From positions 2,880,001-2,944,000 of the forward strand of contig OZ219754.1 of the NCBI GenBank assembly GCA_964291295.2: DNA of 64,000 nt, written 5' to 3'. The position numbers and the translations under genes were made by a program. The notes under the pieces are model-generated. The model worked only from the letters and a program-made list of their open reading frames with translations, ran no database searches and was not told the DNA's origin. Positions within the stretch are counted from its first letter, which is position 1. Each line of letters begins with the position of its first letter. This document shows positions 20,414-32,600 of this stretch, piece by piece. This DNA is from an uncultured Candidatus Binatia bacterium. Its GTDB lineage: Bacteria; Desulfobacterota; Binatia; UBA9968; JAJDTQ01.

Positions 20414-21283
20414 TCACATCACCCGGCGCCGCAGGCAGGCGCTCAGATAGTCCACTCCCGTCACCAGGACATAGAGCACGATCAACAGCGTCAGCAGTTG
20501 TTGTTCGAGGAACAGGCTCATGGCGACATGGATGCGCTGGCCCAGGCCGCCGGCGCCCACGAACCCCAGGACCGCGGCCACCCGGATGTTCACTTCCCAG
20601 CGGTACAGCGCATAAGAGATGAACTGGGGCAGGACCTGCGGAAGGATGCCGTAGAACAGGATCTGGATTTTCCCCGCCCCGGTGGACTGCAGCGATTCGA
20701 CGGGCTGCGGGTCCACGTCCTCCAGCACCTCCGCGAAGAGCTTTCCGAGCACGCCGCCAGTGTGAACCCCCAGGGCCAGCACACCGGGAAAGGGACCCAG
20801 CCCCACCACGAACACGAACATCAGCGCCCACAGCATCTCGGGGACGGTGCGCAGAAAATTGAGGATGCCCCTGGCGGCCAGGTACGGGACGCGCCGCAAC
20901 CACGTCCGGCGGCGCCGGGCCTCCATCTCGTGAAGCAACCCCGCGTACACGAGATTGCGCGAGCCGAAGCAGGCCAGTGCCAGCGCGATGACCACCGACA
21001 GCAAGGTCCCGATCAGGGAGATGGCGAAGGTCTCCCATGCGCCGGCGACGGCATCGGCCACCACCTTGCCCGAAAGGTCCGGAGGGAAAAGCCGCTCCAC
21101 GTACCCGGCAATGGCACCGCCCCCTTCGACACTGAAGAGCAGGCCGGGGTCGATCCCGGAACCCTGCCAGCTCCAGACGAAGAGCGCCGCCAGGAACGCC
21201 AGCAACACGTACGTGGACGATGGCGTGCGGGCGCCCGCCTTGAGGGTGGGCAGGTCCGCGGGCGCGGGCGCGGCGTGATTCAC
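20414..21283 (-). CDS. phnE: PhnE-type ABC transporter permease
   Basis: LRTVPEMLWAL, GLGPFPGVLAL, LYRWEVNIR, LGFVGAGGLG. Confidence 0.9.
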   Translation of the reverse strand: MNHAAPAPADLPTLKAGARTPSSTYVLLAFLAALFVWSWQGSGIDPGLLFSVEGGGAIAGYVERLFPPDLSGKVVADAVAGAWETFAISLIGTLLSVVIALALACFGSRNLVYAGLLHEMEARRRRTWLRRVPYLAARGILNFLRTVPEMLWALMFVFVVGLGPFPGVLALGVHTGGVLGKLFAEVLEDVDPQPVESLQSTGAGKIQILFYGILPQVLPQFISYALYRWEVNIRVAAVLGFVGAGGLGQRIHVAMSLFLEQQLLTLLIVLYVLVTGVDYLSACLRRRVM

Positions 21284-22170
21284 AGCAGCGACCGCACCCT
21301 GGCGCTGATCCAGTCGGCTCCCGCCACCAGCGCGAACAGGATCATCAGCAACGTGGAGACCTCATGGAAGTTGAACATCCGGATGGAAATCTCGATCTGC
21401 TGCCCGATGCCGCCGGCGCCCACGAGGCCCAGGATGGCCGAGGTCCGCACCGCGCACTCCCATCGGTACAGCGTGTAGGAGGCGAGGTTGGGCAGCACCT
21501 GCGGGAACCAGCCGTAGAAGAAGATCTGCAGCCGCCCGGCACCGGTGGACTGGATCGCCTCCAGCGGCCGCTCATTCACCGACTCGAATATCTCCGAGTA
21601 CACCTTGCCCAACATTCCGCCGTAGGCGACCCCGATGGCCAGTACGCCCGGAAACGGCCCCAGGCCCACGGCGCGCACGAACATGAAGGCCCAGACAAAC
21701 TCCGGGATGCAGCGGAACAGGCTCAACAGGCCCCGGGAGAAACCGTAGAGACCCATCTTGAACCCGTGTCTCAGGCCGGAGCCCCGGTCGCCGCTCTCAT
21801 GGAGGATGCCCTGGAAGCTGAAGGTACGAGTCGCCAGCAGACCGAGGGGGAAACCGATGAACACGGCGATCAGCGTCCCCATGACCGAGATCTGTATGGT
21901 CTCCAGCGTGGGCCGGATCATGAGATGGAGGAACTCCCATGACAACTCGGGCGGATACATGCCCGTGACGAACCGCCACAGGTGCTCCCTGCCCTGGGCC
22001 TCGAAAAACAGCCCTGGATTCACCTCGGCCCGGCGCCAGCTGTCCGCCAGCAGGACAAGGAACAACCCGCCGAACAGGTAGGGGAAGATGGCACGCGATG
22101 CCGTGACCCCGCCGGGAGTCGCCGGCGGGGTCACGGCCCTAGACCGCGACCGGCCGAGGTTCCGGTTCAT
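21280..22170 (-). CDS. phnE: PhnE-type ABC transporter permease
   Basis: RCIPEFVWA, GLGPFPGVLAI, LYRWECAVR, LGLVGAGGIG. Confidence 0.9.
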   Translation of the reverse strand: MNRNLGRSRSRAVTPPATPGGVTASRAIFPYLFGGLFLVLLADSWRRAEVNPGLFFEAQGREHLWRFVTGMYPPELSWEFLHLMIRPTLETIQISVMGTLIAVFIGFPLGLLATRTFSFQGILHESGDRGSGLRHGFKMGLYGFSRGLLSLFRCIPEFVWAFMFVRAVGLGPFPGVLAIGVAYGGMLGKVYSEIFESVNERPLEAIQSTGAGRLQIFFYGWFPQVLPNLASYTLYRWECAVRTSAILGLVGAGGIGQQIEISIRMFNFHEVSTLLMILFALVAGADWISARVRSLL

Positions 22171-22951
22171 GGACGGCCCCGCCCGCGCCGTTCGCCGGGA
22201 CGCGGCCGGAATACAGCTCTTGCAGAAGCTCCGGGGTGACCCGGACCGCGGCCGTGTCGAACAGCTTGAACCCCGCCTTCATGCCGACGACCCTGGGGAA
22301 ATACGACAGCGCCAGATCGGTGCTGTGAAGGTTCACCAGCAGCGTCTTGCGGGTGCCGCCGCTGATGGCGATGAGGAGCCTGAGGATGGTTTCGGCAAGG
22401 GAGGGATCCACCGACGACACCGGCTCGTCCGCCAGGATCACCTCGGGGTCCTGCAGCAGCACCCGGGCGATGGCCACGCGCTGCTGCTGGCCGCCGGAGA
22501 GTTCGTCCGTGCGGCTGAAGAGCTTCTCGCCAATGCCCACGTCGGCCAGTGCCCGGTAGGCGGACTCCAGTTGCGAAGGCCTTACCAGGGAGGCCAGGGA
22601 AGCCGGCAGGGACCAGCGTCCCAGCCGGCCGGACAGCACGTTGTGGACCACGCGCAGGCGGGGCACCAGATTGTGCTGCTGATAGATGGTCCCGATGCGG
22701 CGGCGCATTTCCCGCAGCCGCCGGCCGTACAACTCGGCCACCTCCTGCCCGCCGATGCGAAGACGTCCGGCAGTGGGCCGAATCGTGCAGTTGAGCATGC
22801 GGAAGAGGGTGGTCTTGCCGGCGCCGCTGGGCCCGATGAGGGCCACCCGCTCCCCCTTGGCGACCTTCAGATCGAAACCCTGCAAGGCCACCTGCTGGCG
22901 TCCGAAGACCTTGCGGACACCCTCCAGGTGGTATTGTTGCGGAGGTGTCAC
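22139..22951 (-). CDS. phnC: PhnC-type ABC transporter ATP-binding protein
   Basis: [45 protein letters not shown] start overlapping upstream stop. Confidence 0.9.
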
Positions 22952-23811
22952 GGGATCTTGAGCATCCCGGCGGCGATGGCCGCCCTCCTGATTCCGTCCC
23001 AATCCGAATCCCTGGCCGGAATGAACTTCCGGGTGCGCTGAAGACCCATGATCTTCCTGTCTTCGGGTTTCGCGTAGTCGAGCTTCAGGAGTGCCTGCGT
23101 GAAGCGCTCCCGGACCTTGGCCGGCACTCCGCCCCGGGCCACCCATACGTAGTCCACATAAGGCGGCGTGGTCCAGAACACGTTTGTCTTCCCGGTATCG
23201 ATCCTCTTGCTGTCAACGAGCTTCCGCCACACCAGAAAGTTGAGGGCGCCGGCGTCGACCCGGCCAGCCGCCACCCAGGCCGCGGTGGCGTCATGGGCGC
23301 CGCTGAAACCGAACTTCTTGAAGTCCCGCTCCGGGTCGACGCCCGCCGCCCCGAGGAAGTGCCGGGGCATGAGGTGTCCGGAGGTGGAGCTCACGCTGCC
23401 GAAGGCAAAGGTCCTGCCCTTGAGATCCTCCAGGGTCCGGATGCCGGAATCGGTACGCGCCACGAACACGCTCCTGAAGCTTGCGTCTTCTTCACGCATG
23501 ACCAGCCGAGTGGCTCCCTTGGCCCGCTGGGTGGCCTGAACCGAGGTGAAGCCGCCGTACCAGACAATGTCCAGCCGGCCGGCCGCCAGCCCCTCTACCG
23601 TGGCCGCATAGTCCACCACCGGGATGAACGTGACCTTGGTGCCCACCTCCCTGGCGATGTAGTCGGTAAAGGGCCTGTACTTGCGCAACAACTCCTGCGG
23701 ATCCTCGTCGGGGATGGCGGACAGCCTCAACGTGTCCGCGGCGGCGACACCCCAGGCCACGAACACGGCCGACACCAGCCACCCCAGTCTCCAGGCGAAC
23801 TTCCTGTGCAT
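22948..23811 (-). CDS. PhnD-like periplasmic binding protein, putative selenate/selenium-associated subfamily
   Basis: Signal peptide; SAIPDE, VDYAATVE, WYGGFT, STSGHLMP, SGAHDAT, VDAGALN, TPPYVDY resemble TIGR04553-type proteins (from memory); GGAGG RBS before ATG 23811. Confidence 0.8.
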   Translation of the reverse strand: MHRKFAWRLGWLVSAVFVAWGVAAADTLRLSAIPDEDPQELLRKYRPFTDYIAREVGTKVTFIPVVDYAATVEGLAAGRLDIVWYGGFTSVQATQRAKGATRLVMREEDASFRSVFVARTDSGIRTLEDLKGRTFAFGSVSSTSGHLMPRHFLGAAGVDPERDFKKFGFSGAHDATAAWVAAGRVDAGALNFLVWRKLVDSKRIDTGKTNVFWTTPPYVDYVWVARGGVPAKVRERFTQALLKLDYAKPEDRKIMGLQRTRKFIPARDSDWDGIRRAAIAAGMLKIP

Positions 23812-31959: not shown

Positions 31960-32047
31960 CCGTCGTCTTCGTGCTTGTCCTTGTCATGGTCTCGCTCTCC
32001 CGTCCCGAATCTTCCCCTGTCGCACCGGATCAGCCCCGCGCCCGGAG
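31850..32047. repeat. 21-bp exact direct repeat pair (31850-31870 and 32027-32047) flanking adhesin start region
   Basis: ggatcagccccgcgcccggag twice; extends to 25 bp with one mismatch (cact/cacc). Confidence 0.9.
31873..31899 (-). repeat. C15 homopolymer plus (AC)5 microsatellite at 5' end of adhesin (simple sequence repeat)
   Basis: G15 at 31885-31899 on plus strand, preceded by gtgtgtgtgt and gagaga. Confidence 0.9.
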
Positions 32048-32141
32048 TAAGGAAAGCTGAACAACTCCGAGTTCGCCGGAACTGAATCAACAGTATGCGA
32101 GCAGCCCCCCCTGTCACGCCATCGCCTTTTTCGGACCTTCT

Positions 32142-32600
32142 CTAGAGCTTGTCCAATTCGGCCAGCAGCTCCGAGTTGTCCGGGATACCGCCCTCGTAAA
32201 TCCTGGAGTAGCGCACGCTCCCCTGCTTGTCGATGATGAAGACGGCCCTCTTGGGAAATCCCTGGGGGCGCAGGCAGTCGTACTGCTCGCAGACCGCCCC
32301 ATGGGGAAAGAAGTCCGACAGCATCGGAAAGGTGATGCCGCCCATCTGCTCCGCGAACACCTTGTGTGCAAACACCGAATCCACACTCACGCTCAGAACC
32401 TGAGCGTCTTTGGCTTCGAAGCTGGCCTTGTCAGCCTCGAAGTTGCTCAATTCCTGCTTTCAGCCGCCGGTGAAGTCCAGCGGATAGAACGCCAACACGA
32501 CGTTCTTCCTGCCCGCATAATCGCTCAGGGACACCTTTTCGTCCCGGGACACCGGCAGGCTGAAGTCCGGGGCCTTTTCTCCCACTTCTGGCATTGCCAT
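32142..32600 (-). CDS. Selenocysteine-containing peroxiredoxin (AhpC/TSA, AhpE-like), Sec47
   Basis: AAGGAG RBS, ATG 32600; [15 protein letters not shown]...[16 protein letters not shown](32462-32460)-KQELSNF...[14 protein letters not shown] sits at the peroxidatic Cys of PxxxTxxC. Confidence 0.88.
32414..32442 (-). promoter_or_regulatory. Putative bacterial SECIS hairpin
   Basis: cttcgaggctg-acaaggc-cagcttcgaag (11-bp stem, one G-U) beginning 18 nt after the in-frame UGA. Confidence 0.7.

Follow-up and report, generated by a model that had tools for sequence, protein, structure and literature searches.

An operon for a putative selenium oxyanion importer headed by a selenium-type LysR regulator in an uncultured Candidatus Binatia bacterium

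Introduction

Reviews and an experimental study from 2024 state that no organism is known to have a dedicated selenium transporter. The NCBIfam family TIGR04553 (ABC_peri_selen) comprises periplasmic proteins named 'putative selenate ABC transporter substrate-binding protein' (ABC, ATP-binding cassette), whose partners are PhnC-type ATPases and PhnE-type permeases. The word 'selenate' in this name is a curator's guess; public records already apply 'putative selenate' to close homologues, and a protein atlas entry merely repeats the database name. An association of the pump with selenium genes has already been noted in a selenoneine preprint. Here we describe an operon of this kind from an uncultured Candidatus Binatia bacterium. 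It lies in a stretch of 64,000 nucleotides (GenBank assembly GCA_964291295.2, contig OZ219754.1, positions 2,880,001 to 2,944,000), called the window throughout, and contains genes for a LysR-family regulator, a substrate-binding protein, an ATPase and two permeases. A first-pass annotation of the window had proposed a regulated selenium oxyanion import module at this place.

The best studied proteins related to the family are the PhnD1 phosphite binders of marine Prochlorococcus and Synechococcus. In Prochlorococcus PhnD1, phosphite is held by the residues Y46, S126, T127, S128, H158, D205 and F90 and is covered by a cap, Y206, which is supported by D13 and N176; the enclosed pocket shuts out bulky groups (Bisson et al. 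2017). A ligand with three oxygens is preferred at least 10-fold by Synechococcus PhnD1 and by 2-4 orders of magnitude by the Prochlorococcus and Trichodesmium proteins. Synechococcus PhnD1 also accepts tetrahedral phosphate, the tyrosine cap forming a hydrogen bond to the fourth oxygen (Shah et al. 2023). Shah et al. call PhnD1 paradoxical: its best ligand is phosphite, yet the strains do not grow on phosphite. These strains are without utilisation genes, and PhnD1 is neither regulated by phosphate nor follows it in abundance. The string 'selen' occurs 0 times in that paper. Prochlorococcus and Synechococcus have selD and ybbB.

Among LysR-family regulators, a subfamily termed LysR_Se or HrsM has been delimited by its genes adjoining selA, selB and selD; the role of a selenium-specific regulator, perhaps one sensing a SelD product, was proposed for it (Lin et al. 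2015, PMC5322559). In that text the term 'ABC transporter' occurs 0 times.

Results

The operon described here probably encodes an importer of a selenium oxyanion, most likely selenite, under a selenium-type LysR regulator. We favour this reading because of the TIGR04553 membership of the binding protein, the sharp gap around that family, its linkage to selenium genes, and the LysR_Se sequences found upstream of the pump or fused to it. Further reasons are the genome's demand for selenium in selenocysteine and selenoneine, the missing PhnJ match, the PhnD score below cut-off, a pocket of the three-oxygen type and the co-occurrence with selD. The operon is real and well delimited and belongs to a kind already named in NCBIfam, for which the substrate is a prediction only. 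Gene order, family memberships, conserved pocket residues, the selenium pathways of the genome and the physical linkage of the family to selenium genes elsewhere were observed directly; what the pump carries, in which direction it is regulated and by which effector is inferred.

The window has a G+C content of about 67%, and open reading frames (ORFs) were judged by third-position G+C together with family matches. All genes of the locus were found at the coordinates given here with strong family matches and a third-position G+C of 0.83-0.88. The operon runs on the minus strand. The LysR gene (23858-24823) ends 46 bp before the start of the binding-protein gene (22948-23811), the gene for the PhnC-type ATPase (22139-22951) begins with a GTG that shares bases with the TGA ending the binding-protein gene, and the genes of the first (21280-22170) and second (20414-21283) PhnE-type permease overlap by 4 nt. 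With this tight packing, that is the 46-bp spacer and the overlapping starts and stops, lysR-sbp-phnC-phnE-phnE can be read as one operon. ygfZ starts 79 bp from the LysR start on the opposite strand. The gene map thus agrees in every particular with the first-pass description of five co-oriented genes beside a divergent ygfZ. Both permeases pass the PhnE equivalog TIGR01097 (cut-off 216.7), the first with 238.3 and the second with 259.5 bits, the latter also matching Pfam BPD_transp_1. The ATPase matches Pfam ABC_tran (E 2.5e-34) and stays below the cut-off of TIGR02315 (244.1 versus 266.1 bits).

The binding protein (287 amino acids; Pfam Phosphonate-bd, E 6e-74) scores 328.3 bits on TIGR04553 against a curated cut-off of 250, so that the family label given in the first-pass annotation holds in a hidden Markov model assignment. 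A search of the whole genome with the same model returned the same gene (328.4 bits) as the only one of its kind. On the PhnD equivalog TIGR03431 the protein reaches 174 bits, below the cut-off of 261, and is no member. The boundary of the TIGR04553 family is sharp in a sample of 301 genomes of the phylum, since members above the cut-off, present in four genomes, score 323-364 bits and the next-best PhnD-like proteins at most 209. The closest relative in the genome collection, with 81% identity, is encoded on another Candidatus Binatia chromosome. With the described family the window thus shares the family score, the PhnC- and PhnE-type partners encoded at 20414-22951 and a genome bearing selD. 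It differs from other members in being led by LysR_Se and in lying far from selD and the sen genes, whereas many others adjoin selD, senA, senB or egtD. PhnJ (PF06007), the marker used for carbon-phosphorus lyase, had no match in the 99.13%-complete genome, and neither the operon nor its immediate surroundings in the window contain a dehydrogenase gene; the first-pass annotation had noted no C-P lyase or ptxD genes nearby.

In a phage collection, the only match to the binding protein was a distant PhnD-like protein encoded in an unannotated record of Pseudomonas phage Y12 (OQ572413.1:11763-12551; 28% identity over 89% of the query), and no cyanophage copy was found there.

The pump's link to selenium is one of gene context only. 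We fetched 80 related pump loci (L-numbers below), only 49 of which hold at least 15 kb, and clustered their neighbours without prior labels (ORFs of at least 90 amino acids, filtered by third-position G+C where the locus was G+C-rich; clusters antisense to core genes were excluded, and of the top 40 clusters we annotated 14). The commonest non-core clusters were SenA (21 loci), EgtD (15), SelD (13) and SenB (12); a clade-specific GGDEF cluster, mostly from Undibacterium, was also among the top ones (12 loci). At least one of selD, senA, senB and egtD was found by tblastn in 29 of the 80 loci. Moreover, we examined 201 genomes of Burkholderiales, including one flagged as unpublished (G376); 43 were pump-positive above the cut-off and 158 negative, a single partial match below the cut-off being counted as negative. 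At least 9 of the 43 pump-positive genomes had selD no more than about 13 kb from the binding-protein gene, and in four of these less than 1.2 kb separated the two. A rough binomial estimate for such proximity under random placement in a 4-Mb genome is 1e-11, not corrected for relatedness. selD as such was asked for in the genomes of the first 50 loci and found in 48, the two misses being metagenome-assembled genomes for which no completeness is given. Among the Burkholderiales it was present in 41 of 43 pump-positive versus 116 of 158 pump-negative genomes (Fisher one-sided p 8e-4, not corrected for relatedness). Physical linkage of the pump to selenium genes is much stronger evidence than this co-occurrence.

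In the genome that holds the window, selA, selB and selD form one group on contig 1 (687.5-691.8 kb), and selD (373.8 bits) carries an in-frame TGA. ARAGORN predicted two tRNA-SeC genes (contig 1: 3122135-3122229 and 3567074-3567173), one of which may be spurious. senA (507.5 bits, cut-off 420) adjoins a senB-like gene at 3604999-3607345 of contig 1 (3.605-3.607 Mb). Judged from the presence of selA-selB-selD, tRNA-SeC and senA-senB, the organism very likely makes both selenoproteins and selenoneine. An egtD-like gene lies about 17 kb from the senA/senB-like pair.

The regulator combines HTH_1 and LysR_substrate domains and passes NF040786, 'selenium metabolism-associated LysR', with 255.5 bits (cut-off 250). 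At E<=1e-40 the genome has no other match to this family. The likeness to LysR regulators found beside selenium genes, pointed out in the first-pass annotation, was therefore borne out, if by a small margin. L045 (275 bits), L046 (292 bits) and L048 (315 bits) also have a LysR gene above the NF040786 cut-off directly upstream of the gene for the binding protein, L046 and L048 reading LysR-selD-binding protein. Like the members of the LysR_Se/HrsM subfamily, the window regulator thus passes NF040786 and sits in a selenocysteine-decoding genome. The members described by Lin et al. (2015) neighbour selA, selB or selD, whereas in the window, L045, L046 and L048 the regulator sits with the importer genes and heads the operon; of the putative selenium genes, the window LysR adjoins only the putative importer. 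The divergent intergenic region of 79 bp between LysR and ygfZ (24824-24902) would hold the LysR operator and the promoters. Its alignment with the L045 equivalent showed little conservation beyond the coding ends, and no operator box is claimed.

Two further loci show variants around the regulator. In L044 a LysR_Se-like gene occurs in two pieces (5793-6672 and 8434-9258; 52% and 57% identity) and is perhaps frameshifted; between it and the TIGR04553-type gene there is another gene for a Phosphonate-bd binding protein, a more distant one. In L048, from Rokuibacteriota, a pyridine nucleotide-disulphide oxidoreductase of 595 amino acids (5734-7518, plus strand) is encoded directly upstream of LysR_Se-selD-binding protein and is a candidate reductase for imported selenium species.

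What is new in our analysis is a LysR_Se-type effector domain that is fused to the pump ATPase in Anaeromyxobacter-type operons. The order phnC-phnE-phnE-binding protein is seen in L054 (Anaeromyxobacter sp.), L056 (Anaeromyxobacteraceae) and L063, and there the sole pump ATPase, of about 495-505 amino acids, consists of ABC_tran followed by a LysR effector domain without helix-turn-helix (L054:118-1635, plus strand; L056:12596-14731, minus strand; L063:6634-8118, plus strand). The best NCBIfam match of the fused domain is NF040786, at positions of about 90-296 and with 119-140 bits, the next family reaching 90-104. The fusion is not an artefact, because both Pfam domains occur together in 119 of the 120 top-ranking homologues listed, cultured Anaeromyxobacter strains included. 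The literature search found no paper on a LysR effector domain fused to an ABC ATPase. The window ATPase has no C-terminal regulatory domain. C-terminal regulatory domains of ABC importer ATPases such as MetN and ModC mediate trans-inhibition. The ATPases of L054, L056 and L063 likewise carry an extra C-terminal ligand-binding domain, which differs from those of MetN and ModC in being a LysR-type effector of the selenium-associated subfamily and not C2/ACT or TOBE. By this analogy, the fusion points to feedback inhibition exerted directly by the LysR_Se ligand, and it would tie this ligand to the cargo of the pump. In L063 the two PhnE permeases seem to be fused as well, in one ORF of 571 amino acids (8115-9830, plus strand).

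Among solved structures, the binding protein is nearest to PhnD1 of Synechococcus MITS9220 (7S6G, 207.7 bits) and of Prochlorococcus MIT9301 (5LQ5, 176 bits), followed by PtxB (at most 126.8 bits), E. coli PhnD (75.8) and the arsenic-oxyanion binders ArrX and AioX (about 50). In the alignment, Y46, S126, T127, S128, H158, D205, Y206, D13, N176 and F90 of PhnD1 correspond to Y68, S142, T143, S144, H173, D220, Y221, D35, N191 and F112 of the window protein. All ten pocket and cap residues of PhnD1 (structures 5LQ5/5LQ8 and 7S6G/7ZCK) are therefore kept, and they vary little or not at all among ten diverse family members. The pocket would enclose a small trigonal anion with three oxygens under a tyrosine cap, and the protein is likely to bind phosphite in vitro, whatever its physiological substrate. 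PtxB (PtxABC) of Pseudomonas stutzeri and Trichodesmium has the same fold family, S-T-S/His motif and tyrosine cap. It is much more distant in score, however, and has a tyrosine where the window family has Phe112; Asp220 completes the cage in the window family as in PhnD1, in contrast to PtxB. Unlike in PtxABC, no ptxD-like partner is found among the conserved neighbours of the window family: clusters recurring in at least 5 of the 80 loci include no dehydrogenase of PtxD size (about 300-400 amino acids), a genome-wide search for ptxD not having been made. The organisms with PhnD1 and the window genome alike are without known routes of phosphite or phosphonate utilisation.

The position of PhnD1 was assessed with a profile that we built from ten family members. 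On this profile the two PhnD1 proteins reached 306 and 270 bits, the 80 family members 341-501, the 26 nearest non-members 125-211 and PtxB 149-164. By these scores PhnD1 is the nearest of the studied relatives and stands at or close to the family's edge.

Beyond the LysR gene follow ygfZ, a gene with FN3 repeats, a peroxiredoxin gene and a NUDIX gene. ygfZ (24903-25964, plus strand) encodes a folate-binding protein of the YgfZ/CAF17 family with GcvT fold (353 amino acids; GCV_T and GCV_T_C), which has the KGCYLGQE motif and 82.2 bits on TIGR03317 (cut-off 49), the best YgfZ-signature match in the genome. A role of this GcvT-like protein as demethylase of methylated selenium compounds was considered and rejected in view of the YgfZ signature and motif and of a link to the pump in three close relatives only. 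The peroxiredoxin gene of the AhpC-TSA family (32142-32600, minus strand, 152 codons) has a single in-frame TGA (32460-32462) at the peroxidatic position, in the motif FTGG-U-KQE when TGA is translated as U. L042, L045 and L044 share this TGA at the same alignment column. With this conserved peroxidatic UGA and with selA, selB, selD and tRNA-Sec in the genome, the product is a predicted selenoprotein; it does not belong to the PrxU equivalog (83.9 versus 270 bits). An 11-bp hairpin beginning 20 nt past the U of the UGA (-25.5 kcal/mol) is compatible with a bacterial selenocysteine insertion sequence. Its energy is unexceptional, 20 of 200 shuffles being as stable (z -1.21), and a four-sequence consensus fold (-7.49 kcal/mol) did not recover it, so no more is claimed. 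The NUDIX hydrolase with zinc ribbon (32656-33222, minus strand; Pfam NUDIX and Zn_ribbon_Nudix) is 66-76% identical in L042, L045 and L044, and its gene adjoins the peroxiredoxin gene in L042 and L045 and ygfZ in L044. YgfZ, the peroxiredoxin and NUDIX are probably an oxidative-stress or redox and Fe-S repair neighbourhood and not parts of the importer. The first-pass annotation had counted YgfZ and the peroxiredoxin among the genes of a selenium locus; as neighbours they are conserved in three close relatives, while nothing ties them to selenium uptake.

The FN3-repeat protein (26173-31959, minus strand; 1928 amino acids, four FN3 stretches), taken for an adhesin in the first-pass annotation, is indeed encoded by the sole gene that separates ygfZ from the TGA-bearing peroxiredoxin gene. 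The gene had no tblastn match in the 80 related loci and all three syntenic relatives lack it here, so that the later insertion suspected earlier was supported by the synteny check. Within the window, G+C peaks (0.70-0.72) and GC skew is at its most extreme (-0.30) in the region 26001-30000, with G+C 0.716 and skew -0.30 at 26-28 kb, a composition consistent with a foreign or recently inserted gene. The FN3 gene is a lineage-specific local insertion outside the system.

Discussion

In the mechanism that we propose, the periplasmic protein would close on an anion of the XO3 type through a hydrogen-bond cage of the S-T-S motif, His, Tyr and Asp under the tyrosine cap. The selenite species SeO3 2- and HSeO3- are judged likelier cargo than selenate, because PhnD1 prefers a three-oxygen ligand over phosphate by at least an order of magnitude. 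The binding protein would hand the anion to the PhnE heterodimer, with the PhnC ATPase powering transport. Imported selenium would then be reduced and activated by SelD and feed selenocysteine proteins and selenoneine synthesis. LysR_Se, the genome's only one and first gene of the operon, would set expression according to an intracellular selenium signal and may also control the divergent ygfZ.

Several points weigh against this reading. The pocket is identical to that of a phosphite binder, so that selenite and phosphite are inseparable by sequence, and PhnD1 binds phosphite best, then phosphate and methylphosphonate (Bisson et al. 2017; Shah et al. 2023). A literature search found no assay of binding, uptake or expression for any member of the TIGR04553 family, and no RNA run was found to cover 20414-25964. 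The regulator passes NF040786 marginally, by 5.5 bits. Some 2.2 Mb separate the operon (2.88-2.94 Mb) from selABD and some 0.7 Mb separate it from senAB, and the fetched flanks of 51 of the 80 loci contain none of selD, senA, senB and egtD. No selD was found in 2 of 50 and in 2 of 43 pump-positive genomes. Moreover, co-occurrence with selD is weak evidence of little discriminating power, because selD is nearly universal in the phylum sample (275 of 301 genomes) and is present in 157 of 201 Burkholderiales, the background being 73-91%. Within the phylum we discarded the phylogenetic profile as uninformative for this reason. Of the profile against selD that the first-pass annotation had suggested, the co-occurrence therefore stands and its weight as evidence does not. 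The import module proposed there likewise fared in two ways: the families, the genome's pathways and the linkage to selD, senA, senB and egtD in relatives speak for it, and the identity of the pocket with that of a phosphite binder makes phosphite or phosphate uptake a serious competitor.

A PhnD1-type importer of phosphite or phosphate, serving reduced or inorganic phosphorus, with a selenium neighbourhood that is coincidental or due to shared regulation, would account for the two closest structures, for the ten conserved contact and cap residues and for permeases that pass the PhnE equivalog cut-off. The micromolar or lower affinity of PhnD1 for phosphite, with phosphate bound more weakly (Bisson et al. 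2017; Shah et al. 2023), points the same way. We nevertheless regard such an importer as unlikely. No PhnJ was found, the recurrent neighbours are selenium genes, and both the operon regulator and the domain fused to the ATPase are of the selenium-associated LysR family and not Pho-type. A cluster resembling phosphite dehydrogenase does not recur in at least 5 of the 80 loci, a statement that covers the loci and not a ptxD search of the window's own genome. In the cyanobacteria themselves, the missing growth on phosphite and the independence of PhnD1 abundance from phosphate argue against phosphorus as cargo. If selenium is imported, it could enter as selenate or as another selenium species and not as selenite. 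Both NCBIfam and NCBI annotation say 'putative selenate', and the tetrahedral phosphate taken by Synechococcus PhnD1 indicates that a four-oxygen anion can fit. The name remains a curator's guess for which the literature offered no assay, however, and the three-oxygen preference described in the Introduction disfavours selenate, as the enclosed pocket, which excludes bulky groups, disfavours organic selenium species; we consider this alternative very unlikely.

The region from 20.4 to 33.2 kb, including ygfZ, the selenocysteine peroxiredoxin and NUDIX, might also be taken as a single co-regulated selenium island under LysR_Se. A block NUDIX/peroxiredoxin (TGA)/ygfZ/(LysR)/binding protein does recur in the closest loci, L042, L044 and L045, with ygfZ always divergent from peroxiredoxin, LysR or the binding-protein gene, and the ygfZ-LysR pair is a classic LysR arrangement. 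Yet this synteny is confined to 3 of the 80 loci, all from close relatives (64-81% identity of the binding protein), and YgfZ and this type of peroxiredoxin stand beside the pump in no other lineage of the 80. L042 retains the block without any LysR gene, which makes the block independent of LysR. The gap between peroxiredoxin and ygfZ is variable: it holds the FN3 gene in the window, three unrelated genes (nucleotidyl transferase, phosphofructokinase, Rieske protein) in L045 and nothing but about 200 bp in L042. The alignment of the LysR-ygfZ region also identified no operator. One island of this extent seems quite unlikely. These alternatives overlap, and the probabilities that we attach to them are not intended to add up to one.

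With selenite import by the operon kept as the preferred reading, the TIGR04553 pump family appears, from its sequences and gene context, to be the best computational candidate for a dedicated selenium transporter. The window offers a clean case of a pump wired to the genome's only selenium-type LysR and not to selD or selenoneine genes, and its pocket of the phosphite-binder type points to selenite and not to the 'selenate' of the database name. More tentatively, the pump family together with its edge member, PhnD1CE of marine Prochlorococcus and Synechococcus, may be the dedicated high-affinity selenite importer of bacteria. The LysR_Se effector would then control it twice, as a transcription factor heading the operon (window, L045, L046, L048) and as a feedback inhibitor fused to the ATPase (Anaeromyxobacter-type). 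This is a possibility to which we give somewhat less than even credence. If true, the fusion would mark the LysR_Se ligand as the imported species or its immediate product, and selenium binding by cyanobacterial PhnD1 could explain why abundant ocean phototrophs have a phosphite-binding pump that they cannot use for phosphorus.

Other genes of the window

The first-pass annotation had further named a Se-type hydroxylase at 60.9-64 kb as a possible consumer of imported selenium. This link is not supported: the XDH-family molybdenum hydroxylase at 60.9-63.9 kb passes no family, with 396.9 and 162.2 bits on TIGR03311 (cut-off 830), and the maturation marker YqeB (TIGR03309) had no match in the 99%-complete genome, YqeC not having been searched. 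Its large subunit (60888-63912, minus strand) lies in two frames, an ORF for the N-terminal part at 61921-63912 and one for the C-terminal part at 60888-62015. The family match switches frame near 61.9-62.0 kb, which may be a frameshift, a pseudogene or an assembly error.

On the other flank of the operon lies a tRNA-Ser gene (20158-20247), followed by dnaX. A CobW/COG0523-type GTPase gene (15707-16948, plus strand) is found downstream of an XDH-family gene set; its product reaches 64.8 bits on the 'CobW-related selenoprotein' model (cut-off 180). Several sets of XDH-family molybdenum hydroxylases and two UbiD-family decarboxylases are encoded in the window (4047-6359, 11764-15706, 7282-8802 and 55562-56947), and these XDH and UbiD genes suggest aromatic or heterocycle catabolism around the locus.

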